Below are positions 3 to 11,134 of a stretch of 11,134 bases of DNA, piece after piece; within the stretch, counting starts at the first letter, position 1, and every line of letters begins with the position of its first letter. The stretch lies in assembly GCA_964247135.1 (NCBI GenBank), contig CAXTTL010000162.1:1-11134 (forward strand), read 5' to 3'. A program made the translations under genes and the position numbers. A model generated the notes under the pieces. It had not been told where the DNA came from. It searched no databases and worked only from the letters and a program-made list of their open reading frames with translations. The stretch is from an uncultured Deinococcales bacterium (lineage in GTDB: Bacteria; Deinococcota; Deinococci; Deinococcales; JAAFIG01).

Positions 3-611
3 GTCAGACCCAAAGCGGATTGGGCGTTGTTTATTACGGTTTTAACCTGGGCTGGACTGGTCAACGCCTTCGCCATGATCCCACCGTTTTTCAGTTTTGC
101 AGCCCAACTCTCGAGTTTCCTGGGCACGCGCTCAGAGGCGATTCTGCTGGTCGTCATTCAAGGTTTTGGGATTGGAACTGGTCTTGCCCTCTCGAGCCTC
201 GCTGCGAGGCTTTCAGGCGCAAAACTGCGCGATTACGCCAGCGTGCTGCTGCCGATGTGCCTGGGGATTTGGGGCGGGCATTATTTGTTTCACTTCATCA
301 CGGGGTACGCAACCCTGCTGCCCAACATCGTGACCACGCTGCAAAACCTGGGCTTGCCACTGACGGCGCTGCCCAAACCCAGCATCCCTCGAGCCGACGG
401 AATTTTTCCAGTGCAAGTCGTGATTACTTATGTTGCGCTTGCCGCCAGTGGTTATGCCGCGTTTCAAAAAGCCAGCGTTGCCAGCAAGGGAGACTCGAGA
501 AACCTGATTCTGAAACTTTTGCCGCAAGTGCTGGTGCTGCTGGTAATTGCCACGATCACGCTTTTGATTTTTTCGCAACCCATGCAGGCTCGAGGGAGTT
601 TGTTGACTTGA
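3..611 (+). CDS. Polytopic membrane protein, C-terminal part (5' truncated by the window); resembles FesM-like / 4Fe-4S-binding-domain membrane proteins
   Basis: The frame of ORF 27..611 is open from the window edge (VRPKADWALFITV...). It has about 5 hydrophobic helices. The motifs NAFAMIPP, GIWGGHYLFHFITG and terminal QPMQARG resemble, from memory, the C-terminus of FesM-like 4Fe-4S membrane proteins. No Cys clusters are visible in the window, so the family call is tentative. Confidence 0.6.
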   Translation, partial: VRPKADWALFITVLTWAGLVNAFAMIPPFFSFAAQLSSFLGTRSEAILLVVIQGFGIGTGLALSSLAARLSGAKLRDYASVLLPMCLGIWGGHYLFHFITGYATLLPNIVTTLQNLGLPLTALPKPSIPRADGIFPVQVVITYVALAASGYAAFQKASVASKGDSRNLILKLLPQVLVLLVIATITLLIFSQPMQARGSLLT

Positions 612-700
612 AGGTCGAGTGTTTGAAAATGTAAATCTAACCAGGATACAGGAAAACATAAATGGAATTCGGGTTATTGCAACCTCTGAAAACCCAAACA

Positions 701-922
701 TTATGCAAAGAACATGACGTAAATACCAAAACAAACACCAAAGCCTAAAAAAAATAAACCAACTGACAAAGAAAGAAGACGTTGCTCCTTTCGTGAGAGT
801 TTCAAAATTGAAGGACGCATCTGCCCTATATTCCAATCAAAACGATAAGCTGCCAACAACAATAATCCAACAACGACACAAATAATGATGAAAAAAGCAT
901 CATCTGGACGAAGACTTCTCAA
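701..922 (-). CDS. Small hypothetical membrane protein (73 aa, two predicted TM helices); putative third gene of the TA operon
   Basis: The TTG start lies 4 nt after the antitoxin stop and is preceded by an SD-like GAGGTG 5 nt upstream (ctcGAGGTGataatTTG). Two hydrophobic stretches (AFFIIICVVVGLLLLAAY; LLSLSVGLFFLGFGVCFGIYVMFFA) flank a basic loop. GC is about 36% by hand count. Confidence 0.55.
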   Translation of the reverse strand: MRSLRPDDAFFIIICVVVGLLLLAAYRFDWNIGQMRPSILKLSRKEQRLLSLSVGLFFLGFGVCFGIYVMFFA

Positions 923-926
923 ATTA

Positions 927-1313
927 TCACCTCGAGAGTGCCGCCATCACCAACGGCAACTTCGGATCATGCGGACGCAACACAATCTCCACCTCACACC
1001 CCACCGCCTGGGCGTGCTCGAGCAAGGTACTCAAGGTCAGGTTCGACTCGAGTGATTCCACTTGCGCCACCCTGGGCGCACTGACCTCGAGCGCTGCGGC
1101 AACATCCTTGGCTTTTAAACCCGCTTGCTTTCTGGCTTTTGCCAGCGCTTCACCCACCGCTCGAGCCGCGATCACCTGGCGCACTTCATCCCGCATGGCT
1201 TGTGGGGTGCGGGTGCGAATGGGCGTGTCTTTGGGAACATGCACTTTCAGGGTTGCGCCCTGGCGTTCTTCTGGACTGAGTTGATCGAGTAACGCTTGCA
1301 AATTCTGATTCAT
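927..1313 (-). CDS. XRE-family helix-turn-helix antitoxin (HigA-like)
   Basis: HTH_3-type signature LAKARKQAGLKAKDVAAALEVSAPRVAQVESLESNLTLSTLLEHAQAVGCEVEI. The start overlaps the toxin stop (ATGA, 1310-1313), with a GGAGG SD upstream. Confidence 0.85.
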   Translation of the reverse strand: MNQNLQALLDQLSPEERQGATLKVHVPKDTPIRTRTPQAMRDEVRQVIAARAVGEALAKARKQAGLKAKDVAAALEVSAPRVAQVESLESNLTLSTLLEHAQAVGCEVEIVLRPHDPKLPLVMAALSR

Positions 1314-1729
1314 CCGCTCCTCCGAATCATGCCTGGTGCATCGCGCTTGAACGCCAAGTACACCTCAAGGGCTTCAGTTAACTTCAACGGGTTCGGGGTG
1401 TTGCCCGCTTTGACTTCGGCATTGACGATCACCGCAAAGGTTTCACTGCTTTTGGTGTGCTCTATGCTGACCTCGAGTGGAAACCAGTACGCCCGCGACC
1501 CACCTTTCAGACCACCTCGAGAACGGGTTTTCAACTCCCAAATTGGTGTGCCTTTTAAGGTTTTGGCAAAACGGCTTTCTAATCCTTGCTGGGTCAGGTC
1601 TTCGAGCATCAAAATGATGGCATCCAAAGCTTGCTGGTGTCCGGTGTGGGCAATCTCGAGCAAATCCTCAACGATGCGCGGGTGCAGGGCATCCAGGCGG
1701 TCAGGGTGGCAGGGTTCAAGAAGCCGCAT
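1310..1729 (-). CDS. Type II toxin, RelE/ParE superfamily (HigB/Gp49-like)
   Basis: RelE-like core KTLKGTPIWELKTRSRGGLKGGSRAYWF followed by AVIVNAEVK...TP. It lies immediately upstream of, and is translationally coupled to, an XRE-HTH gene (higBA order). Confidence 0.75.
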   Translation of the reverse strand: MRLLEPCHPDRLDALHPRIVEDLLEIAHTGHQQALDAIILMLEDLTQQGLESRFAKTLKGTPIWELKTRSRGGLKGGSRAYWFPLEVSIEHTKSSETFAVIVNAEVKAGNTPNPLKLTEALEVYLAFKRDAPGMIRRSG

Positions 1730-1730
1730 T

Positions 1731-1750
1731 AATTAAGTTTAAACTTAATT
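1731..1750. promoter_or_regulatory. Perfect 20-bp palindrome; putative antitoxin operator
   Basis: AATTAAGTTTAAACTTAATT is its own reverse complement and covers the -10 element of the TA promoter. Confidence 0.75.
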
Positions 1751-1764
1751 TCTATTTTGGTCAA
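1736..1764 (-). promoter_or_regulatory. Sigma70-type promoter of the TA operon, leaderless
   Basis: Minus strand TTGACC (1764-1759) - 17 nt - TAAACT (1741-1736) - 6 nt - ATG (1729); no SD. Confidence 0.8.
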
Positions 1765-1770
1765 GACCCA

Positions 1771-1822
1771 ACAAACAAAACTCGAGCCACGGGCAAACGT
1801 CAGTGGCTCGAGTTTTGTTTGT
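1771..1822. terminator. Intrinsic terminator, likely bidirectional, downstream of the YbhB/YbcL gene
   Basis: Perfect 20-bp arms ACAAACAAAACTCGAGCCAC (1771-1790) and GTGGCTCGAGTTTTGTTTGT (1803-1822) with a 12-nt loop. It starts 4 nt after the stop at 1827 and has a T-rich 3' arm on both strands. Confidence 0.8.
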
Positions 1823-1826
1823 ATTT

Positions 1827-2387
1827 TTAACGTCCGTAAGAGGCTGTAAAACTGGTTTTCGCAATCGCATTGCCGTTAAAGTTAAAACCAATAAAGGCTT
1901 GCGAGGCTCCCGCAGGAATCTCGAGTTTTTCCGCGCCCAAAGCGTACAGCGTGAACACATAACGGTGCGGCTTGTCGCCTGGGGGTGGGCAAGGACCGGC
2001 GTAGGCGGCTGCGCCCAAGGAATTCGTGGCTTGAACCGTTCCGGCGGGCATCAGTTTGCCGTCGGGGCTGCCAGCGCCCTTCTCGAGTTTGGTGCTGGAT
2101 GCTGGAATGTTGTAGACCATCCAGTGCGTGAAGCCGCCAACCCCAGTTTTGGCGTCAATGTCTTGCATAATCAGGGCAAAGCTTTTTGTGCCGGTCGGTG
2201 CGCCAGACCAATTGAGTTCTGGCGAGACGTTCGCGCCAGTGCAACCAAACCCATTCATGACTTGTTCGATTTTGATCATGGATCGCGCTGGCATGTCAGG
2301 GCTTTTCAGTTTGAACATGGTGCCCGTTTGCGCGGACGCACCGACGGCGACCAGCAGCAAGGCAGCGAGTGGCAGAAAACGTTTCAT
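1827..2387 (-). CDS. ybcL: YbhB/YbcL family Raf kinase inhibitor-like (PEBP) protein, secreted
   Basis: Signal peptide MKRFLPLAALLLVAVGASA. Family motifs GFGCTGANVSPELNWSGAPTGTKSFAL, HWMVYNIP and GPCPPPGDKPHRYVFTLYAL. GGAGG SD 6 nt before the ATG. Confidence 0.92.
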   Translation of the reverse strand: MKRFLPLAALLLVAVGASAQTGTMFKLKSPDMPARSMIKIEQVMNGFGCTGANVSPELNWSGAPTGTKSFALIMQDIDAKTGVGGFTHWMVYNIPASSTKLEKGAGSPDGKLMPAGTVQATNSLGAAAYAGPCPPPGDKPHRYVFTLYALGAEKLEIPAGASQAFIGFNFNGNAIAKTSFTASYGR

Positions 2388-2506
2388 GGTTTACCTCCAA
2401 AGCATTTCTCGAGTTTAAAGCTCGAGCTGTAGTCAATCACAAACTGTTTGAATCAGGCGTTTTTTTGGTTACATGACTTTCGTCGCTTGCGATACTGTGT
2501 TTGCGA

Positions 2507-2540
2507 AATGAAAATCAACCCTCTGCGAACGACAGGTTGA
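2507..2540 (-). terminator. Possible weak intrinsic terminator after the 570-aa gene
   Basis: TCAACC (2515-2520) / GGTTGA (2535-2540) stem followed on the minus strand by TTTTCATTT; begins about 15 nt after the stop. Confidence 0.35.
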
Positions 2541-2555
2541 AGGATTAACTCGAGG

Positions 2556-4268
2556 TTACTTGTTCCAGTTAAAACCAGTCTTGCCGTAACTTTGTAGCTT
2601 GTTGCCCACAGGCAAGAAATACCCATAACCCGCTTCGGTGCGTGAAGCCCAAGATTCAAACCAATCGCCGAAAGCGCTGGTTAAATCGGCTGGAATGTCT
2701 TTCTCGAGTTGGTACGCCTTCACGCTCGAGGCGATCATGGCGTCAATCTCGCTGCGCTCCAAACGCACTGGGGCGGTAAATTGTGCTCCCGCAATGTTTT
2801 GCGGCAAGTTAAAGGTTTTGAACAATGGATTTTCCAAGAGCGGTGCGGCGTTTAAATACGCCTCGAGTTTGGTTTGATCGCTGCCAATCAAAATGGTGTT
2901 GTTCTTGTTGACCATCAAGAGTTCAAATTTGGGAATTGTGGTGTTCTCGATTTGAAATTCTGGTCGTGTCAGCACCAGGCTTTCAAATCCGGCAATGGTT
3001 TTGCGCTCGAGGATTGGTGCGGGTTGATCGGCATTTTTGTTTTGCGCCAAAGTGTCATTGAAGGCGGTCTCGAGGTCATTCAAGATCAGTGCGCCGTCTT
3101 GGGTTTTGGCATAAAAAACCGAATCGGAATTTGCTCCTAACGCATTGCCAAGCAATGTTGATCCAAGCAGGTTTAAAGACAATGGTCTATACCGACTGAA
3201 GTTCGCAAGCCCTAAACTGGAAGCCAAGTAACTTGTGTTGGGCAGGTTGCTGTTTACAACGCCCCATTCGCTGCCGAGACGGGATTTGAGTTTGGTGAAA
3301 ACATCCATGACATTTTTTTGTTCTTGTTGGCTCAAATCCATGTCGGGCAACCATGTTTGCAGGTAATCCAGCCAGCCGTTGGTGTCGGTGGCAAACACGC
3401 TGGCGCTCGGGGCGGTGCTCGGCAAATCGGTCAGCAACTCGAGTTTGCTTGGCGAGTAGGTCAGTAATTTGTACAGGGCGGCATCGCCACCGTTTGGGTT
3501 TAACTGCGTGATACCTCGGGTTTCCAAACCGTCCTCAACGATGCTCGAGACGCTGCTGGAAACGTTTAAGGTTTTTAAGATTGCCAGCACATTTTGAGGA
3601 ATTGTTTTGTCGCGTCCAAGCAGTTGCGCCAGCGCCGAGTAATGAATGGTGGTCTTGAAAAAACCGTCGCCCGTGACGGTGCTGACCGCCTGATAAACGG
3701 GGTTATTCACCAGGACGGGCAGAACTTGTCCATTCAAACGTTTCAGGTAACCGCGCAGCAAATCTTTGTTGCTCGAGAGGTAGAACAAGTTGTTGCCAAT
3801 GCCCGCCGCCATGCCGCCACTGATGTCAACCAAGTAATTGCCTTCACGAAATTTGTTTTTTGGATTGACGTTTTTGATGGCGTCGTTAAACGATTTTGTG
3901 AAAGCGTTGACGATCAGGTTTTTGGGCGTCATGCGAACCACCGCCAGAAATTCTGGGCTGCCGTTGACGCTGTAGGCAGACACCGCCACGTCACGAATCG
4001 AGGCGATCATGGTGCGCACCGTCAGGTCTTTTAATAAACCTGGTACTTGCACATCCTTGCCCATCTGACTCGAGAGTGCATCATTTAACAGCGTTCCCAA
4101 GAACTTTTGCGTGTCCTCGGCAAACGAACCCATTTGCCCCACGGCTTCTTGTAAGTCTTTGGCTTCAATCACACCCAGCGCGTTGTCAGGAAAATACCGC
4201 GTGAGTGGTGTGGCGAAGGCGCTCGAGGACAGGGCTATGGTGAGGATCAGGATGGATTTGCGTAACAT
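2556..4268 (-). CDS. Exported protein of unknown function (570 aa), possibly DUF3352-like
   Basis: Long ORF with a Sec signal peptide (MLRKSILILTIALSSSAFA) and no Cys. The mixed alpha/beta pattern appears to repeat twice (YFPDNALGVI... and DLPSTAPSASV...), reminiscent of DUF3352-type proteins. The family call is unverified. Confidence 0.8.
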   Translation of the reverse strand: MLRKSILILTIALSSSAFATPLTRYFPDNALGVIEAKDLQEAVGQMGSFAEDTQKFLGTLLNDALSSQMGKDVQVPGLLKDLTVRTMIASIRDVAVSAYSVNGSPEFLAVVRMTPKNLIVNAFTKSFNDAIKNVNPKNKFREGNYLVDISGGMAAGIGNNLFYLSSNKDLLRGYLKRLNGQVLPVLVNNPVYQAVSTVTGDGFFKTTIHYSALAQLLGRDKTIPQNVLAILKTLNVSSSVSSIVEDGLETRGITQLNPNGGDAALYKLLTYSPSKLELLTDLPSTAPSASVFATDTNGWLDYLQTWLPDMDLSQQEQKNVMDVFTKLKSRLGSEWGVVNSNLPNTSYLASSLGLANFSRYRPLSLNLLGSTLLGNALGANSDSVFYAKTQDGALILNDLETAFNDTLAQNKNADQPAPILERKTIAGFESLVLTRPEFQIENTTIPKFELLMVNKNNTILIGSDQTKLEAYLNAAPLLENPLFKTFNLPQNIAGAQFTAPVRLERSEIDAMIASSVKAYQLEKDIPADLTSAFGDWFESWASRTEAGYGYFLPVGNKLQSYGKTGFNWNK

Positions 4269-4275
4269 GAATTTC

Positions 4276-4302
4276 AGTCTAGCACCCGTGTCATTTTGTC
4301 AA
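4276..4302 (-). promoter_or_regulatory. Extended -10 leaderless promoter of the 570-aa gene
   Basis: Minus strand TTGACA (4302-4297) - 15 nt - TAGACT (4281-4276, preceded by TGc) - 7 nt - ATG (4268); no SD. The -35 spacer is atypically short. Confidence 0.6.
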
Positions 4303-4310
4303 ACTCGAGC

Positions 4311-4351
4311 AATCAAAAAACGGGCGACTGGAGCGTGTCGCCTGTTTGATT
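4311..4351 (-). terminator. Intrinsic terminator after potD
   Basis: Stem AAACGGGCGAC (4318-4328) / GTCGCCTGTTT (4337-4347) with one mismatch, an 8-nt loop and a T run on the minus strand, just after the potD stop at 4362. Confidence 0.65.
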
Positions 4352-4361
4352 TTGCGTTGAT

Positions 4362-5408
4362 TTATCTGGCTTTGATTTTTGTCCAAACCGCATCGTAAAG
4401 CTTCAGGTTCGCACCGATGTCGTCGGTGAACTCGAGTTTCGCCATTTCGTTTTCGCTTGGATAAATGACTGTGTTTTTAACATCGGCTTTGCTCATGAAG
4501 GCTTTTGAGGCTTCGTTCGGACTGCCAAATTGATTGAAGTCGCTCAGTTGCGCTCCGACTTTGGCATCCAGAATGAAATTGATAAATTGTGTCGCCAGGT
4601 CTTTGTTGGGCGCTCCAGAGGTGATCATCAGGCTGTCCACCCAAATTTCGGTGCCCTCTTTGGGCAAAAAATACCCCAGGTTGGGATTGTCGCGGATGCC
4701 CCTGGCGGCTTCGCCGTTGTAAATCACGGCGGCGGTGGCTTGACCACCCAATAATTTATTCTTGCCCCCAGGCGAGCCGTCAAACCCTAGAGCGCGAGTT
4801 TTTGCCTCTTGAACAAGCTGTCCAGCTTGTTTTAAGTGATCGAGGTTGATGTCGTTTTGCGGGTATCCCAAGTAACGCAGTGCGCCGCCCAGCATCACGC
4901 GCATGTCGTCGAGCATCACAAACGGACCTTGCTGCTTTTTGGGATCAAACAGCAAACTCCAAGATTTATCGAAATTTTTAACCTTGTCTTTTCGGTAACC
5001 GATGCCCGTTGTGCCCCACTGGTACGCCACCGTGTACTTGTTGCCAGGGTCGTAATTTGGATTGACGAAACGTTTGGACAAATTCTTGTAATTCGTGATT
5101 TTTGCCAACTCGAGCGGCTGTACCAGATTTTTGCCAATTAAGGTTTTGATCGCGTAGGTGCTCGGCACGATCACATCGTATTGTTTTGTGCCGCCCTGCT
5201 CGAGTTTTGCCAGCATGTCCTCCATGCTCTCGTAGAGCGAAATATTGACTTTCGCGCCCGTTTTTTTCTCGAAGGCTTTGACGATGGCGGGGTCGATGTA
5301 TTCGGACCAGATGAACAAACTTAAGGTGCGTTTTTGACCCATCACCCCGACGCTCGAGATTGCGGTTGCGGCGGCGAACAATCCTGCCAGCACAAATCGT
5401 TTTTTCAT
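4362..5408 (-). CDS. potD: Spermidine/putrescine ABC transporter substrate-binding protein
   Basis: Motifs WSEYIDP, YESMEDMLAKL, YDVIVPSTY, YQWGTTGIGY, PKEGTEIWVDSL and FINFILD. The start is reassigned to ATG 5408 (MKKRFVLAG..., signal peptide), which is preceded by GAGGGGG. Confidence 0.93.
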   Translation of the reverse strand: MKKRFVLAGLFAAATAISSVGVMGQKRTLSLFIWSEYIDPAIVKAFEKKTGAKVNISLYESMEDMLAKLEQGGTKQYDVIVPSTYAIKTLIGKNLVQPLELAKITNYKNLSKRFVNPNYDPGNKYTVAYQWGTTGIGYRKDKVKNFDKSWSLLFDPKKQQGPFVMLDDMRVMLGGALRYLGYPQNDINLDHLKQAGQLVQEAKTRALGFDGSPGGKNKLLGGQATAAVIYNGEAARGIRDNPNLGYFLPKEGTEIWVDSLMITSGAPNKDLATQFINFILDAKVGAQLSDFNQFGSPNEASKAFMSKADVKNTVIYPSENEMAKLEFTDDIGANLKLYDAVWTKIKAR

Positions 5409-5487
5409 GACAATCCCCCTCAACTTCCTCGAGACTAGCAATGCAGAATATTAGCGCATTGGACTGGATGTGACATGAAAGATTCTT

Positions 5488-5516
5488 GTAGGGGATGGTC
5501 TCAGACCATCCCCTAC
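5488..5516. repeat. GTAG-type REP-like hairpin between potC and potD
   Basis: GTAGGGGATGGTC-TCA-GACCATCCCCTAC: a perfect 13-bp stem starting with GTAG on both strands, 2 nt after the potC stop, with no U tract. Confidence 0.6.
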
Positions 5517-5518
5517 GG

Positions 5519-6334
5519 TTATTCCTTGGCGTTGCGTTGCAACAAATTCGATGCTGCCACCGCGATCATGGTCAACAAAACAATAATCGTACTGAGGGCG
5601 TTGATGTCGGGCGTGATGCCGCGTTTGACGGTGGTGTAAATCCAGATCGGCAGCGTGCCAGAGGTCGGACCGCTGGTGAAGTACGAGATCACAAAATCAT
5701 CAATCGAGAGTGTAAAGGCAAGCAACGCGCCCGCCAGAATGCCAGGGGTTGCCAGCGGCAAAACAATAAAGCGAATCGCTTGCCACGCATTCGCATATAA
5801 ATCTCGAGCAGCTTCCTCGAGCGCATTGTCCAACCCTGCCAACCTCGAGCGCACCACAATGGCGACAAAACTGATCTGGAAGGTGATGTGCGCGATAATC
5901 ATGGTGAAGAGGCTCGGTTCAAAAATCGGCAGGAAGTTGCGCAGCGCGGCGTACATCAGCAGCAACGATATTGCCATGACGATATCGGGCGTGACGACCG
6001 GAATGTACATCAGCCAGGCGAACAGCCTCGAGCCTGGGAACTTGTAACGGTGCAAGCCGTAACCCAAAAGACTGCCCAGAATGGTGCTGACAAACGTGCT
6101 GATAAAACCGACGATCATGGTGTTCTCGGCGGCGTTTAAAATCTGGTCGTTGTCAAAAAGCGAGCTGTACCATTTAAACAGCGGTTGGGCGATCTGAAAA
6201 TCCACGCCGTATTTGGAATTCTTAAACGAGAAAATCACGATCACCAGAATCGGAATGTACAAAAACGCCATGACCGCATACGAAATCAGCCGCAATCCTG
6301 GCGAGACGGGGCGTTGCAGGCGTTCGCGGTTCAC
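5519..6334 (-). CDS. potC: Spermidine/putrescine ABC transporter permease
   Basis: FLYIPILVIVIFSF, EAA loop LEEAARDLYA, AFTLSIDDFVISYF, TLPIWIY and PDINALST. GTGA overlap with the potB stop. Confidence 0.93.
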   Translation of the reverse strand: MNRERLQRPVSPGLRLISYAVMAFLYIPILVIVIFSFKNSKYGVDFQIAQPLFKWYSSLFDNDQILNAAENTMIVGFISTFVSTILGSLLGYGLHRYKFPGSRLFAWLMYIPVVTPDIVMAISLLLMYAALRNFLPIFEPSLFTMIIAHITFQISFVAIVVRSRLAGLDNALEEAARDLYANAWQAIRFIVLPLATPGILAGALLAFTLSIDDFVISYFTSGPTSGTLPIWIYTTVKRGITPDINALSTIIVLLTMIAVAASNLLQRNAKE

Positions 6335-7281
6335 AGCAGATCACGCATTCCTTCCTCGCCGGCGCGGCGGGCGTAGAGGTACAAGACCAACAGCGTCAAG
6401 CCCATGACCAGAAAGCTGATGGCTGCGCCAAATGGCCAGTCCCTCGAGGTGCCGAATTGCTGCGCGATGCTGTTGCCGATCAGGCTCACTTTCGCCCCGC
6501 CAAGCAAGTCCGGCACGACGTACATGCCCAGCGCCGGAATGGCGGTCAGGATGATCGCGGCGACCAGACCAGGCAGGGTTTGCGGCAGCAAAACTTGCAC
6601 GAACGCCTGGATTTTGCTGGCGTACAAATCCTGTGCCGCCTCGAGCAAGCTCCAGTCCACGCGTTCGACGGCGGTATAAAGCGGCAAAACCATAAAAGGC
6701 AAGTAGGTGTTGACCATGCCCCAATACACGGCAAAATCGCTGGGGTACAGACCGTCACCGGCTTTGACCAAGCCCAAGACCCGAGCAAATTCGGTGACGG
6801 GCGTGCCTGGTGAGAAGACGATCATCCAGGCGTAGGTGCGAATCACCAGGTTCGTCCAAGAGGAGACGATCACCAGCGTTAACCAGGTGTTGCGTCCTTT
6901 TGGTCCGTGGGCGGCGATAAAAAAGGCGACGGGGTACGCCAGCACCACGCAAAACAGTGTCGTGACCAGTGAAACCAGCACCGTGCGCCCGAGAATCTCG
7001 AGATAGACGGGGTCAAACCCCAGAATATCCCAGCCCGCAAAACGTACATAATTGTTGGGTGTGAACGGTTGGGTTACACCGCCGAGGTCATCTCGAGAGA
7101 GAAACGAGAACGCCAGCAGGATGATGCTTGGAATCACCAGGAATACCGTGATCCAGATGACGCCAGGTCCGGCGGTCAGTGCGGCTCGAGCCAGCACTTG
7201 AAGCGGATTGAGGACTTCACCGCCGACGGTACTGGAGGTGCGGGCTTTCTTGGCTCGAGGTTTCTTGGCTTCCGAGATCAC
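6331..7281 (-). CDS. potB: Spermidine/putrescine ABC transporter permease
   Basis: LAYPVAFFIA, WTNLVIRTYAW, YLPFMVLPLY, LLEAAQDLYA, PDLLGG and RDWPFGAAIS. GTGA overlap with the potA stop. Confidence 0.93.
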   Translation of the reverse strand: MISEAKKPRAKKARTSSTVGGEVLNPLQVLARAALTAGPGVIWITVFLVIPSIILLAFSFLSRDDLGGVTQPFTPNNYVRFAGWDILGFDPVYLEILGRTVLVSLVTTLFCVVLAYPVAFFIAAHGPKGRNTWLTLVIVSSWTNLVIRTYAWMIVFSPGTPVTEFARVLGLVKAGDGLYPSDFAVYWGMVNTYLPFMVLPLYTAVERVDWSLLEAAQDLYASKIQAFVQVLLPQTLPGLVAAIILTAIPALGMYVVPDLLGGAKVSLIGNSIAQQFGTSRDWPFGAAISFLVMGLTLLVLYLYARRAGEEGMRDLL

Positions 7282-8402
7282 AAGGTTTCCGCCTTGGTGT
7301 GCGCCTCGAGCAAGATCAGTTTGTGCGGTGGGAAACTGGCATAAAGGGTTTCGCCCGTTTCAAAGTCGAGCATCACCTCGCCGATGTTCATGGCGCTGAC
7401 CTCGAGTTCGGTGCCGTCGCCGGTTTTGACGCGGTAGGCGTCCATCGCGCCCGAGTAAATTTCGTCGGTGATTTTGACCGCAACGGTGTTGACACTCGAG
7501 TTTTGGGTTCGGGTCAAACTGATTTTTTCGGGGCGTATTGCCAGCGTCACCTCGCCCGAGGCGGGCAAATCGCATTCAACCTCGAGGTCGCCAAAGGCGG
7601 TCTTGACCTTGTGCGGTGCGATCACGGTGGCGGCAATGGTGTTGCTCGAGCCTAAGAATTTGGCGACGTAAGCGTTGGCGGGGTGTTCGTACATTTCTTC
7701 TGGGCGTCCGAGTTGTTCGATCACGCCTCGGTTCATGACCGCCAAACGGTCTGACATGGTTAATGCCTCTTCTTGGTCGTGGGTGACAAAAATAAAGGTC
7801 ATGGCAAGACGCGATTGAAGGCGCATCAACTCCACTTGCAAATTGGCGCGAAGTTTGCGATCCAGCGCCGAGAGGGGTTCGTCGAGCAGCAAGACTTGCG
7901 GTTCGTTGACAATCGCCCTGGCGAGCGCCACGCGTTGCCGCTGACCGCCCGAGAGTTGCGCGGGCTTGTTCCGAGCCTTGCTGGCAATCTCGACCGTCTC
8001 GAGCGCCCTCTCAACTCGAGTGTTGATCTCAGAGGCTGCCACCTTGCGCATTTTTAAACCGAACGCCACATTGTCCCAGATGCTCATGTGCGGAAATAGC
8101 GCGTAATTTTGAAATACGGTGTTGACGTTGCGCTGGTTGGGCGGCAACTGCGAAACGTCTTGCCCGCGCAATTTCACCTCGCCGGAGTCGGCAAATTCAA
8201 ACCCCGCCAAAATCCGCAGCAGGGTCGTTTTGCCGCAGCCCGAAGGTCCGAGCAAACTGAAAAACTCGCCGCGCCGAATCTCGAGACTGATGCCCTTTAA
8301 AACCTCGAGATCACCGAATGATTTTCTGACATTCCCGAAGGTCACGTCCGAGTTTTGCTCGAGTTGACGCTTTCGCCGCTCAGTCTGGTTGAGTTCAGTC
8401 AC
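7278..8402 (-). CDS. potA: Spermidine/putrescine ABC transporter ATP-binding protein
   Basis: Walker A GPSGCGKT, VFQNYALFPHM, signature LSGGQ, Walker B LLLDEP, H-loop VTHDQEEA and a C-terminal TOBE-like region. The start is reassigned from 8447 to GTG 8402, 7 nt after a -10-like CATAAT. Confidence 0.93.
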   Translation of the reverse strand: MTELNQTERRKRQLEQNSDVTFGNVRKSFGDLEVLKGISLEIRRGEFFSLLGPSGCGKTTLLRILAGFEFADSGEVKLRGQDVSQLPPNQRNVNTVFQNYALFPHMSIWDNVAFGLKMRKVAASEINTRVERALETVEIASKARNKPAQLSGGQRQRVALARAIVNEPQVLLLDEPLSALDRKLRANLQVELMRLQSRLAMTFIFVTHDQEEALTMSDRLAVMNRGVIEQLGRPEEMYEHPANAYVAKFLGSSNTIAATVIAPHKVKTAFGDLEVECDLPASGEVTLAIRPEKISLTRTQNSSVNTVAVKITDEIYSGAMDAYRVKTGDGTELEVSAMNIGEVMLDFETGETLYASFPPHKLILLEAHTKAETL

Positions 8403-8409
8403 CTTGGGT

Positions 8410-8439
8410 ATTATGCGGCATCGGCGCACCGAAAGGCAA
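8410..8439 (-). promoter_or_regulatory. Putative leaderless promoter of potABCD
   Basis: Minus strand TTGCCT (8439-8434) - 18 nt - CATAAT (8415-8410) - 7 nt - GTG (8402). Confidence 0.5.
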
Positions 8440-8465
8440 AAACCCAAACCGAATTGGGTTTGGGT
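8438..8465 (-). terminator. Intrinsic terminator after the 3D-domain gene
   Basis: Perfect 9-bp stem ACCCAAACC (8442-8450) / GGTTTGGGT (8457-8465) with a 6-nt loop, followed by a T run on the minus strand. Confidence 0.65.
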
Positions 8466-8490
8466 CTAAAGTGTTCCACAAAAAATTTGC

Positions 8491-9369
8491 CTAACGTCGT
8501 CCGTAACGTAAAATCGTTAACTTCACCTGGCGTTTGCCCCAACGCAGTGCCATGCTGCGGCTGTAAAACCAGATGTCCACGGTTCTCGAGATTCGCGGAT
8601 TCATGGTGTCTTCAACGACGAAGACCACACCTTGCAACATGCTGTTGTAACGTCCGCGTCCGGCACCAGAACCCAGTGCGCCCATGTCCTCGAGCGTCAC
8701 CTGCGAACCGTATGGGATGCTGCCGAGCATGTCTGGACTGAGGGCGATCACGCCGAAACGGGTTCGTGCGCCTGTGGCGGTGACCCTGGGGCTGGAATCG
8801 GTTTGGCTGATCGAGCTGTTGTAAGCCGTCGATTTTAAGAAATAACTCGGTCCTCTGCGGCTGGATAAGGTGCTGACCCTGGAAGAGGTTGTGATCTTGG
8901 GTTTTGTTTTGGGTTTGAGGGTCGCTTTAATGCTTGGTTTTGGCGCTGCGCTGGTTTTTGCCGTGCTTGCCACACTGGGTTTGCTGCTCGAGGTGCTTGG
9001 CTTGGGGTTGCTCGAGGTGCTGGAGGGTTTGACTGCCAAAGCAACGCTCGGGGGGCTGGCTGGGGCGATGCTGCCGCTCGAGGTTCGGGTGCTGACGGCG
9101 GCTGATGGACTGTCGGGCAACGAGGACGGCAATGGCGTGCTCGAGGTGATGGCGCTTGGCGGGTTGCCGCCGAGCACGCTGAGGGCTTCAAAACGAAGGG
9201 GCAGCGGAATTTGCACTGGGTCTGGCAGTGGAAGGTTGTTGGAAAGCAAAGTTCCGTCCAGGTCTTCAGTTTGTCCTGGGGCACTTTGCGCGAGGCTGTT
9301 CCAGCCAGCAATCATGATGGTGAGCGTGACGACCAATGTCAGTACACGCCAAAAGTTCTGTCTTGTCAT
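8491..9369 (-). CDS. Secreted or membrane-anchored 3D (Asp-Asp-Asp) domain protein with Ser/Pro/Lys-rich linker; putative cell-wall lytic transglycosylase-like
   Basis: N-terminal hydrophobic segment and low-complexity linker. C-terminal STAYNSSISQTDSSPRVTATG...VIALSPD...IPYGSQV...VEDTMNPR...VDIWF...ALRWGKRQV is typical of 3D domains. AAGGAGG SD. Confidence 0.88.
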   Translation of the reverse strand: MTRQNFWRVLTLVVTLTIMIAGWNSLAQSAPGQTEDLDGTLLSNNLPLPDPVQIPLPLRFEALSVLGGNPPSAITSSTPLPSSLPDSPSAAVSTRTSSGSIAPASPPSVALAVKPSSTSSNPKPSTSSSKPSVASTAKTSAAPKPSIKATLKPKTKPKITTSSRVSTLSSRRGPSYFLKSTAYNSSISQTDSSPRVTATGARTRFGVIALSPDMLGSIPYGSQVTLEDMGALGSGAGRGRYNSMLQGVVFVVEDTMNPRISRTVDIWFYSRSMALRWGKRQVKLTILRYGRR

Positions 9370-9966
9370 TCTCGAGCGCCTCCTTGGTGGGCGTCAAAAT
9401 TTCACGCCATGAGGTCGAGCAATAAAAAAAGCTGTTGGCAACGTATTTCGTCGCCTTCGAGCGTTCCAAGAGATTAGACGTGCTCCTTAAGGGTTTGATG
9501 AGTTTTAAACTGGTATTTTCTCATGCAATCACATTCTGTTCCTTAAACCCAGCTTCAAAACCAGCGAATCATCCCAGGCTCAAGGCTTCTGGTACCATGA
9601 GAGAACTGCCAAGACGGCTGACCAAATTCTCATGCTTAACATTCGAGAATTTAACCCCCAGTAAATGTAGGTTAGGTTACAGACACTACCAGATGTAGTT
9701 TGACACAACCATAAATAACCCAAAGAACCCATCAACTGGTGGCAAATCACCCCAAAGCCAAAGTCTTCGAGAAATCTTCAAAAAACATTGCAAAAAACCA
9801 GGCACAAACCGCGCACAATACATCAACAGGGGGTAACCACCTCGAGCGCCAAACATCACCCGCAACGAATGACGAAGCACACTGCTGTTCTCAGCGCCCC
9901 AAAACTAGAATCTAGGCATTCAAAACCTCGAGACAATAACTCGAGCATCAAAACGGAGGAAAGACC

Positions 9967-10707
9967 ATGACAAGCACCCCAAACCCAAACTCGCAACGCC
10001 TCGGCTTTATCTTGATTGGCATCGCAGCACTTTTAACCATCAGCCTGATTGCAGGCGACGGCGCGGGTTGGTTGATTGTTGGCGCGATAGCCGCCGGATT
10101 CCTGTATTTCTACCGCAAGAATCGTCTTCCAGGACTTGCCGTTCCGGGCGGAATTCTGGCGGGCGTCAGTGCGGGCATTTTGTTTGACAGCATCCTCGGC
10201 TTTGACACCGCCTTCTTGATTGGACTGGCGGGCGGTTTTTACCTGATCACCAAACTCGAGCCAAAACGTCACGCCTGGGCAATCTATCCAGCCATCGCCC
10301 TGATTGGTATTGTGGTGGTCAATTTTGTCTCCGATTCGCCGTGGGTGTTTATTCTGGGCACGTTCGCCCTTGGCGTTCATTTTCTAAATCGCAGCAAAAC
10401 AAACCGTATCTCGAGCAGCCCAGCAAACATTGAAGTCGATCTTTCAAGCGTCCAAACGATTGTCCCAACTGTTGAAACCTCAAGCTCGAGCAGCTTTCAC
10501 AGCGCACTTTCACGCCTCGACCGCCTGAAAGCCTGGCGCGGCAACATTGCGGTGCAAAACCAAATTCCTGTTCAAGATGTGCTTTCCGACGCTCAACTCG
10601 AGCATCTCGCACACGCCCCAGTCAGCACGCTCGAAGCTTTGCAAGACACCCTCGAGATTGGGCAGCTTGTGAAGTACGGATCGGCGGTGCTGGCAATCTT
10701 GCAGTAG
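9967..10707 (+). CDS. Multi-pass membrane protein with a C-terminal HRDC-like domain
   Basis: About 6 short Gly-rich TM helices (aa 12-140) and a Ser-rich linker, then RLKAWRGNIAVQNQIPVQDVLSDAQLEHLA...TLEAL...KYGSAVLAIL, which matches the HRDC pattern. GGAGG SD 7 nt before the ATG. Confidence 0.8.
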   Translation: MTSTPNPNSQRLGFILIGIAALLTISLIAGDGAGWLIVGAIAAGFLYFYRKNRLPGLAVPGGILAGVSAGILFDSILGFDTAFLIGLAGGFYLITKLEPKRHAWAIYPAIALIGIVVVNFVSDSPWVFILGTFALGVHFLNRSKTNRISSSPANIEVDLSSVQTIVPTVETSSSSSFHSALSRLDRLKAWRGNIAVQNQIPVQDVLSDAQLEHLAHAPVSTLEALQDTLEIGQLVKYGSAVLAILQ

Positions 10708-10732
10708 AAATGAGATTCAATCAGCATTTGAG

Positions 10733-10765
10733 AACCGAGGAGGGCTACTGCCTCCTCGGTTTTTT
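10733..10765 (+). terminator. Intrinsic terminator after the membrane-HRDC gene
   Basis: 11-bp stem AACCGAGGAGG (10733-10743) / CCTCCTCGGTT (10751-10761) with a 7-nt loop, followed by a T run. Confidence 0.85.
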
Positions 10766-10769
10766 GTGG

Positions 10770-10813
10770 TTGATGGATTGCATGACAACATTGATGGATT
10801 GCATGACAACATT
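10770..10813. repeat. Perfect 21-bp tandem duplication (2 copies)
   Basis: TTGATGGATTGCATGACAACA at 10770-10790 and 10791-10811, followed by TT. Confidence 0.9.
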
Positions 10814-10854
10814 TACGGATGTGTAAAAACCTTCTCGAGGCTCGAGTTTTATTC

Positions 10855-10900
10855 GTTCAGAAGGTTCAGTATTGACTGAACGAACAGAACGGACTATATT
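10855..10900 (+). promoter_or_regulatory. Leaderless promoter with an overlapping palindromic operator for the GbsR/MarR gene
   Basis: TTGACT (10872-10877) - 17 nt - TATATT (10895-10900) - 6 nt - ATG (10907). The dyad GTTCAGT-attg-ACTGAAC (10864-10881) sits on the -35. Confidence 0.8.
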
Positions 10901-10906
10901 TCAACC

Positions 10907-11134
10907 ATGTTGTCCCCTCGAGATCAGTTGATCGAAGATTTTGGAATGTACTTCGAGCAATACGGGCTGTCACGTATTCTAGGGCGCATTTATGGCTTAC
11001 TGATGATCGCAGACGAGCCAATGTTGGGACTCGATCAAATGGCAGAGCGACTGGGCATTTCCAAAGCCAGCGTCAGTACCACGGTACGCCAATTGCAGGC
11101 ATTCACCTTGATCGAAAAGGTCACGGTCCCACGG
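10907..11134 (+). CDS. GbsR/MarR family transcriptional regulator (3' truncated by the window)
   Basis: Manual translation gives MLSPRDQLIEDFGMYFEQYGLSRILGRIYGLLMIADEPMLGLDQMAERLGISKASVSTTVRQLQAFTLIEKVTVPR, a typical GbsR-type winged HTH. It is absent from the ORF track because there is no stop inside the window. Confidence 0.9.
   Translation, partial: MLSPRDQLIEDFGMYFEQYGLSRILGRIYGLLMIADEPMLGLDQMAERLGISKASVSTTVRQLQAFTLIEKVTVPR

Follow-up and report, generated by a model that had tools for sequence, protein, structure and literature searches.

The stretch of DNA analysed here, called the window from now on, is a contig of 11,134 bases (CAXTTL010000162.1) from an uncultured Deinococcales bacterium. 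The draft genome to which it belongs, the source genome (G000), consists of 5,091,702 bases in 386 contigs with a guanine plus cytosine (GC) content of 52.7% and a completeness of 84%; within this set the window is contig C162. The subject of the work is the hexamer CTCGAG, which is found exactly 74 times in the window, from the first copy at 110-115 to the last at 10917-10922, with a mean of one copy per 150 bases. CTCGAG is a true, lineage-wide highly iterated palindrome (HIP) and is not an effect of coding, composition, repeats or assembly. The core of the original prediction on this DNA, which had proposed a palindrome like the HIP1 of cyanobacteria in a bacterium outside that group, holds.

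Apart from three genes without a Pfam match (570, 292 and 139 residues), the window encodes an ordinary ABC transporter operon, an HTH_3 regulator and an HRDC-domain protein. The gene calls come from a home-made open reading frame picker scored by codon usage, with no standard gene finder, and the named proteins were assigned through Pfam. At the left end, a gene of 194 residues is called on the plus strand (27-611) and contains 5 sites (110, 191, 388, 494 and 589). It is followed on the minus strand by the HTH_3 gene (927-1313, 128 residues), with 5 sites (931, 1017, 1047, 1086 and 1160), and by the 139-residue gene (1310-1729), with 3 sites (1472, 1516 and 1655). The gene call in the region 1730-2555 is uncertain, being either 1827-2387 on the minus strand or 1803-2432 on the plus strand; sites 1920 and 2082 fall within the called gene, and sites 1781, 1807, 2408, 2421 and 2549 fall outside it. 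The 570-residue gene (2556-4268, minus strand) has 10 sites and is separated by a gap with one non-coding site (4304-4309) from the gene of the ABC solute-binding protein (4362-5441, minus strand), which has 5. The operon also comprises, on the same strand, two permease genes (5519-7281), one at 5519-6334 with 4 sites and the other at 6331-7281 with 6 sites, and the ATPase gene (7278-8447) with 10 sites, whereas the 292-residue gene (8491-9369, minus strand) adds 6. A non-coding spacer (9371-9945) carries 4 sites (9371, 9841, 9927 and 9940), the HRDC-domain gene on the plus strand (9967-10707) carries 5, and the non-coding tail (10834-10922) ends the series with 3 (10834, 10841 and 10917). Seven of the ATPase sites encode Leu-Glu, and at these seven places the orthologues from non-enriched genera mostly have LS/LA, TR/TV, LD, LR or LV/VR.

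Within the window, 61 sites lie in called genes (11 genes, on both strands) and occupy the three reading frames, with 29 as CTC-GAG, 23 as xxC-TCG-AGx and 9 as xCT-CGA-Gxx. The remaining 13 are found in 1,831 uncalled, non-coding bases, which corresponds to 7.1 per kb. In 200 dinucleotide-preserving shuffles of the window the mean number of copies was 1.95 and the maximum 6, so that none reached 74, and synonymous-codon shuffling of the window genes (500 repeats) gave a mean of 7.05 and a maximum of 15 versus the 61 observed. The near-words GTCGAG, ATCGAG and TTCGAG are present 5 times each. The hand count of the original prediction (74 copies between 110 and 10922, one per about 150 bp) is exact by direct count and by the shuffles; the near-words are as scarce as it claimed, and the spread over all frames, both strands and non-coding DNA is borne out by the genic and non-coding sites. 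Besides, parts of the window, including sites 1160, 4431 and 8987/9011/9077, are matched at 96-100% identity by short contigs that come from three independent studies; no sequencing run contained most of the window, and no RNA data set containing it was found.

The source genome as a whole contains 33,925 copies of CTCGAG, or one in every 150 bases; this number is 24.8 times that expected at zero order and agrees with the excess of about 25-fold given for the window. The word ranks first among all hexamers by more than two-fold, the runners-up being its own overlaps, and each of the 18 variants with a single mismatch has between 96 and 2,216 copies. All contigs are enriched (median 6.8 per kb, minimum 2.56 per kb), and each 4-kb window of the genome has at least 5 copies (mean 26.6). 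The enrichment is thus not confined to the window; such a confinement had been named as a finding that would speak against the proposal. Large, origin-like clusters of the motif were looked for in the genome and none was seen, the maximum being 9 sites in 300 bases.

The 4,275 called genes of the genome hold 27,573 copies, distributed over the three frames as 17,254 (CTC-GAG), 6,253 (xxC-TCG-AGx) and 4,066 (xCT-CGA-Gxx). When synonymous codons are shuffled within genes only 3,869 copies are obtained (3,032, 552 and 285 in the same order), and permutation of the codons gives 1,629. Non-coding DNA is as dense in the motif as coding DNA, with 6,308 copies in 875,732 bases (7.2 per kb versus 0.23 expected, a 31.6-fold excess). 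The claim that codon bias alone is insufficient is upheld by synonymous-codon shuffling both of the window genes and of the whole genome, and dicodon bias does not account for the excess either. At the protein level, Leu-Glu is the most over-used dipeptide (22,405 pairs versus 9,546 expected, 2.35-fold) and 77% of these pairs are spelled CTCGAG; among the control dipeptides the ratios are 1.01 for Glu-Leu and 0.90 for Leu-Asp, and Ser-Ser is raised (1.62). The pressure acts at the level of DNA and is strong enough to alter the proteins, adding Leu-Glu and Ser-Ser/Arg pairs.

Regarding the surroundings of the motif, there is a weak symmetric preference for A at -3 and T at +3 and for G at -1 and C at +1, which in non-coding sites (A at -3 in 41%, G at -1 in 36%) is at least as strong as in coding sites. 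At distances beyond about 4 bases the composition of the flanks approaches the background, and therefore the sites are not copies of a longer repeat. The flank preferences differ among lineages, the common element being the hexamer itself. The spacing between sites follows the three-base periodicity of coding DNA and is otherwise near geometric, slightly regular, with a coefficient of variation of 0.96. Spacings of 20 bases or less represent 4.4% versus 12.6% in the geometric model, with a two-fold deficit of close pairs, and gaps of 300-600 bases show a slight deficit. A spacing of 6 is never found because it would create GAGCTC. This last word, the SacI site and CTCGAG reversed, has 0 copies in 5.09 Mb. 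Pairs of sites 8 bases apart (CTCGAGNNCTCGAG) are about seven-fold rarer than their neighbours, with 11 cases versus 87 at 7 bases and 115 at 9 bases.

The maintenance of the sites was analysed by aligning 400 kb of a genome of the same genus (G005) with the source genome, which resulted in 296 kb in 95 blocks with 85.6% identity. The motif is conserved in 81.7% of the cases (n=3,815) and other hexamers in 46.0% (n=580,277); by arithmetic from these figures, per-base change is about 3.3% within the motif and about 12.1% elsewhere. In non-coding DNA the motif is conserved in 71.8% of the cases (n=255) and other hexamers in 42.6%, so coding constraint is not the cause of the excess. The window alone, compared with five genomes of the same genus and with fewer sites, gives 66-79% versus 40-47%. 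The idea that a genome-wide process maintains the sites, put forward in the original prediction, is upheld by this excess conservation of coding and non-coding copies with respect to relatives.

The partners of non-conserved motifs are mostly one transition away from CTCGAG (CTCGGG 69, TTCGAG 57, CCCGAG 56, CTCAAG 55, CTCGAA 37 and CTTGAG 31). Gaps affect 0.87% at motif sites versus 1.18% elsewhere and, as there is no excess of them, sites arise and decay by point substitution and not by insertion. New copies come from ordinary point substitutions and not from a mobile repeat. Of the words one transition off, 106 of 308 in coding DNA and 20 of 33 in non-coding DNA are aligned to the full motif, with a background transition divergence of about 8%; conversion of these words into the motif, or of the motif into them, is 4-7 times faster than background transitions, and the loss of existing copies is about 3-4 times slower than change in other hexamers. 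The numbers of events at the three transition positions are similar (86, 94 and 125), and the fact that all of them contribute argues against a Vsr-type repair linked to deamination at a single position. The slowed loss, taken together with the equilibrium ratio between the motif and the one-off words, suggests a scaled fixation bias of roughly 2-3 per site, which would be weak for a single site and strong in sum. The bias towards the exact hexamer acts alike on coding and non-coding DNA and at GC contents from 44% to 71%.

The trait is order-wide, graded and extreme in the family of the source genome. CTCGAG is enriched in the 19 genomes of this family (strongly in all 18 besides the source genome), and the loci orthologous to the window carry 3.5-6.7 copies per kb at GC contents from 44% to 61%. 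In a survey of 201 genomes of the phylum, the family shows 5.2-6.7 copies per kb, the genera designated g13, g14 and g15 about 1.4-3.5, g35 (a genus of another family) 3.6, and the families f2 and f4 from 0.3 to 2.9. Genus g9 (30 genomes) is close to the control, the word ranking 298th in one of its genomes, and genus g7 (83 genomes) is depleted, with 26-1,010 copies per genome of 2-6 Mb. In sampled DNA of six other genera CTCGAG is the top hexamer, at 8-12 times the expectation and at GC contents from 46% to 71%, and near-complete genomes of other genera, including one-contig chromosomes, also carry the enriched word. The similar enrichment in other Deinococcota that the original prediction had mentioned is borne out by both the survey and the hexamer ranking in the six genera. 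A literature search, with most subscription journals outside its coverage, found no published report of CTCGAG enrichment in Deinococcota and no work tying iterated palindromes to Deinococcus or Thermus in such a sense. Two observations concern the non-enriched genera: g7 avoids CTCGAG though an XhoI-family nuclease was found in 0 of its 83 genomes, and in a g9 genome (G022, loci L235 and L236) the 34 copies present in 40 kb all lie within CCTCGAGG, so that the bare word seems to be tolerated there only in that octamer.

Even the lowest-density stretches of the source genome have about 1-3 CTCGAG per kb, which is still several-fold above chance. They carry accessory-looking genes, such as a cluster of GH30 and sugar-transporter genes, subtilases, large proteins without Pfam match and a conjugation ATPase of the TraG/TraC type, and this gene content is in keeping with a process by which resident DNA gradually gains sites. 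The conjugation ATPase is encoded in a low-CTCGAG island (contig C75:11000-19000, L214), which is probably a recently acquired integrated conjugative element; an Rfam search of one low-density contig gave no match. On contig C221 (6898-7252) there is an array similar to clustered regularly interspaced short palindromic repeats (CRISPR), whose repeat of about 37 bases includes CTCGAG and in which one spacer is duplicated. This array recalls the presence of HIP1 in a CRISPR repeat of Synechocystis (PMC6604393).

CTCGAG-rich DNA is also found in viral databases. Among 120 IMG/VR contigs chosen by a pattern of three sites, 30 have 3-6 CTCGAG per kb (up to 14 kb in length, 10-18 times the expectation, GC 51-72%). 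Several CTCGAG-rich contigs are phage-like (L413, L344, L312, L400 and others): L413 encodes tail and tape-measure proteins, L344 a portal protein and L312 a phage exonuclease. L413 had no host match among 61 genomes of the order, the 26 CTCGAG-rich viral loci had no nucleotide match in the source genome, and the comparison of the viral contigs with named phages was uninformative.

Restriction sites are normally avoided, and the restriction-modification (R-M) genes of the source genome match avoided palindromes and not CTCGAG. About 25 of the 64 six-base palindromes are depleted at least ten-fold in this genome (GGGCCC 1 copy, CGGCCG 3, GGATCC 7, CCGCGG 11 and CAGCTG 15, for example), and several of the depleted words match resident genes of the Eco29kI, NgoPII, MvaI/BcnI, NotI and PvuII types (contigs C178, C14, C189, C207 and C36). 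A cytosine-C5 methylase with an Eco29kI-type nuclease is found along with 11 copies of CCGCGG, an NgoPII-type nuclease with a C5 methylase along with the single GGGCCC and the 3 CGGCCG, and a close homologue of M.PvuII (E-value 1.5e-149 to PDB 1boo) along with the 15 CAGCTG. Other methylases accompany an MvaI/BcnI-type nuclease and a NotI-like nuclease, respectively, and a D12 methylase adjoins a weak match to the SacI-family nuclease (contig C320, L103:320-2244). The set is completed by two MmeI-like enzymes, a type I HsdM-like protein and a helicase-methylase fusion of 1,499 residues. The control word CGAGCTCG has near-zero counts in most genomes of the family.

In the source genome, which is 84% complete, no CTCGAG methyltransferase was recognisable and neither an XhoI-family nuclease (PF04555) nor Vsr was found; the methylation-directed repair that the original prediction had listed among the possible processes is therefore without support in this family. 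Several candidates for an orphan enzyme were discarded. The methylase of contig C36 is the close M.PvuII homologue, and has homologues in only 5 of the 18 other family genomes; that of contig C4 has homologues in 6 of 18, some of them with stop codons. An M.Eco57I-like methylase of G027 is common only to G019, a C5 methylase of G011 has at most 31% identity to those of G000, and a long open frame (L242:4322-6076) is spurious, as it has no Pfam match and does not resemble the G104 methylase considered below. The one-contig genome G011 has no PF01555 gene, the enriched genomes G019 and G027 (99-100% complete) have no C5 methylase, and the genomes of the family differ in their number of N6_Mtase genes (1 to 10), among which no common orthologue is evident.

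Outside the family, XhoI-family nucleases were found in 4 of the 201 surveyed genomes, belonging to sister families of the order. In G104 a broken nuclease gene lies directly after a TaqI/BseCI-like N6-adenine methylase of 583 residues (the first type), and in G021 the nuclease gene is convergent with a PF01555 methylase of 340 residues (the second type). Close homologues of the first type (43-61% identity) without the nuclease are present in 12 further genomes, all of them enriched or moderately enriched: 4 of 18 in g13, 3 of 3 in g15, 3 of 3 in g31, plus g28 and g43. None was found in g7 (0 of 83 genomes) or g9, nor in the 19 genomes of the source family, where the best match has 27% identity; for the second type the family has only generic, motif-level matches, with none in G011. 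Within g13, the density of CTCGAG does not track the presence of the first-type methylase. Judging from gene content, a link between the word and XhoI-type modification exists in the order, yet a dedicated CTCGAG methylase is unrecognisable in the densest family.

The explanation preferred here is that CTCGAG is a HIP-like word kept by a weak, pervasive and sequence-specific fixation bias; the favoured mechanism, on which we would place somewhat less than even confidence, is a molecular drive coupled to recombination. The bias (scaled at about 2-3 per site) would act towards the exact hexamer on all resident DNA, and a factor recognising CTCGAG would favour motif-bearing alleles during DNA uptake and/or heteroduplex repair. 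Such a drive would be analogous to those proposed for uptake sequences and, recently, for HIP1, and it may run in the source family without a dedicated CTCGAG methyltransferase. It is favoured because every site is affected weakly and to a like degree, because each position of the word contributes, and because acquired DNA is apparently being loaded with sites. Natural transformation in the phylum, the presence of ComEC, which uptake requires, and the work on HIP1 and transformation are further reasons. Deinococcota are known for natural transformation and include cultured transformable members. HIP1 has been linked to transformation and uptake (PMC13756078; bioRxiv 10.1101/2024.09.10.611283). 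A bolder version, rather doubtful at present, is that CTCGAG may be a methylation-independent 'self' word of Deinococcales: some factor would read it during uptake, recombinational repair or end-processing and give alleles with the motif the advantage, and the drive would be old (order-wide), tuned up about 25-fold in the family, continuously rewriting its proteins and extending to the phages of the hosts.

Several points weigh against a recombination-coupled drive. No CTCGAG-recognising factor has been identified, and the bias in uptake or repair is one that we infer; ComEC is also present in non-enriched control genomes and therefore does not discriminate. Because flank preferences vary from one family to another (G196 has C at -1), there is no sign of a single conserved reader, and at the same time the symmetric flanks of non-coding sites suggest a dimeric reader. 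A function in which each further site brings less return would account for the close-pair deficit and the regular spacing no less well than a blind drive would, and weak selection per site for a collective function would give the same conservation and flux statistics. Besides, the substitutions are unpolarised by an outgroup, gains and losses are pooled in the flux figures, and the gene calls are home-made.

The alternatives can be weighed against the same evidence. A model centred on methylation, such as that of Elhai for HIP1, holds that an orphan CTCGAG methyltransferase marks the word and that methyl-directed mismatch repair, very-short-patch (VSP) repair or replication control creates and preserves the sites. 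Cyanobacterial HIPs accompany orphan methylases (PMC4390886), and an orphan CTCGAG methylase has been described in Nocardia, with motif clusters at the origin (PMC4752239). In the order, the model is favoured by the orphan methylases of XhoI-linked type in 12 genomes of moderately enriched genera, with none close in the depleted g7, and by the XhoI-family nucleases in 4 of 201 genomes, the G104 copy standing beside the TaqI/BseCI-like N6-adenine methylase. Nevertheless, the densest family lacks a close homologue of either XhoI-linked methylase type; the methylases of G000 adjoin Eco29kI, NgoPII, MvaI/BcnI, NotI-like and SacI-like nucleases or, in one case, are closely related to M.PvuII; and homologues of the two orphan-looking ones are limited to 5 and 6 of the 18 other genomes of the family. 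The variable N6_Mtase content (1 to 10) with no evident shared orthologue, the enriched G019 and G027 (99-100% complete) with no C5 methylase at all, the failure to find Vsr in the 84% complete source genome, the similar contribution of the three positions, which is not the single-position bias of the VSP kind, and the failure of density to track the methylase in g13 point in the same direction. The model is thus considered unlikely, and it keeps some weight because of the orphan methylases of sister genera and of a possible unrecognised enzyme. A selected collective function is also regarded as improbable: an abundant protein would read the word, either as a nucleoid organiser or as a Chi-like 'self' signal attenuating a nuclease, with weak selection on each site. 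The symmetric flanks of non-coding sites, the two-fold deficit of close pairs and the slightly even spacing, together with the minimum of 5 sites in every 4-kb window, are what gives this proposal its weight, and phage-like IMG/VR contigs with 3-5 CTCGAG per kb would fit a word that is profitable to foreign DNA. However, these contigs are unmatched to the 61 genomes of the order and no named phage was informative, no candidate protein is identified, the flank preferences are not conserved between families, and a palindrome cannot supply the orientation signal of Chi.

Two further readings are refuted and have hardly any probability left. That the word is a by-product of codon, dipeptide or oligonucleotide composition could be suggested by CTC-GAG being the commonest frame and by an observed/expected ratio of only 1.24 under the maximal-order Markov model; this model is uninformative because the pentamers themselves mostly consist of the motif, and the excess remains 7-fold after synonymous shuffling, 17-fold after codon permutation and 31.6-fold in non-coding DNA, with a dipeptide excess specific to Leu-Glu (2.35, versus 1.01 and 0.90 for Glu-Leu and Leu-Asp). 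As for an artefact of assembly or library, or a small mobile repeat carrying the site, which are vanishingly improbable, the fragmentation of the metagenome assembly (386 contigs, 84% complete) would be a reason for suspicion. Nonetheless, all 19 assemblies of the family show the word, as do near-complete genomes of other genera, some of them one-contig chromosomes, and pieces from three independent studies match the window sites, so that the artefact contemplated in the original prediction is unlikely; a mobile repeat is contradicted by the near-background flanks beyond about 4 bases and by the conserved orthologous positions with no gap excess.

The implications are of several kinds. To our knowledge, HIP1 has had no accepted explanation in three decades and is treated as a cyanobacterial peculiarity. 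CTCGAG provides a second, denser and independent case of HIP, in a phylum with cultured members that are naturally transformable. The density forms a gradient between genera, from depletion through neutrality to a 25-fold excess, and the extreme family has no recognisable cognate methylase. This makes up a comparative system in which methyl-directed repair, uptake drive and protein binding predict different, testable outcomes. Moreover, a force at the DNA level that measurably changes amino acids throughout the proteome bears on analyses of evolutionary rate, on the detection of horizontal transfer and on metagenome binning.

Among known systems, several resemble this one in part. The uptake signal sequences (USS) of Pasteurellaceae and the DNA uptake sequences (DUS) of Neisseriaceae are non-palindromic words of 9-12 bases, present about once per kb, whose uptake bias has been shown experimentally; they are hyper-abundant, kept by drive, able to reshape peptides, rarer in recently acquired DNA and family-wide. 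CTCGAG shares with them the hyper-abundance, the reshaping of peptides, the lower density in recently acquired DNA and the family-wide distribution, whereas it differs in being a 6-base palindrome at 6.7 per kb with weak flanks only. VSP repair by Dcm and Vsr in E. coli raises CCWGG and lowers CTWGG. The bias in favour of the word over its one-off variants is common to both cases; on the other hand, here neither Vsr nor a C5 methylase that can be assigned to CTCGAG was found, the events are shared among the three transition positions and the one-off words are not depleted. The R-M systems of the XhoI/PaeR7I type and the orphan methylase of Nocardia (Blow et al. 2016, PMC4752239) have CTCGAG as recognition word. 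In the family studied here, by contrast with XhoI-type systems, the word is enriched 25-fold and neither the nuclease nor the two linked types of methylase were found; with respect to Nocardia, where the word forms clusters at the replication origin, the copies are genome-wide.

The closest likeness is with the HIPs of cyanobacteria, which comprise HIP1 (GCGATCGC) and the alternative words GGCGCC, GCsGC and rCCGGy (Elhai 2015, PMC4390886; Xu et al. 2018, PMC5861425). CTCGAG differs from HIP1 in being another word (a 6-mer and the XhoI site) of another phylum. It is also several-fold denser, with about 6,700 copies per Mb versus the 300-2,700 per Mb given for HIP1 in PMC4390886, and an orphan methyltransferase of XhoI-linked type was found only in some sister genera, with no conserved cognate enzyme in the densest CTCGAG family. 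Like HIP1, it is a short palindrome over-represented genome-wide by at least 10-fold (24.8-fold here), found in every frame and in non-coding DNA to an extent that codon usage does not explain, spaced with a three-base periodicity, conserved above background, lineage-wide with exceptions and included in a CRISPR repeat.

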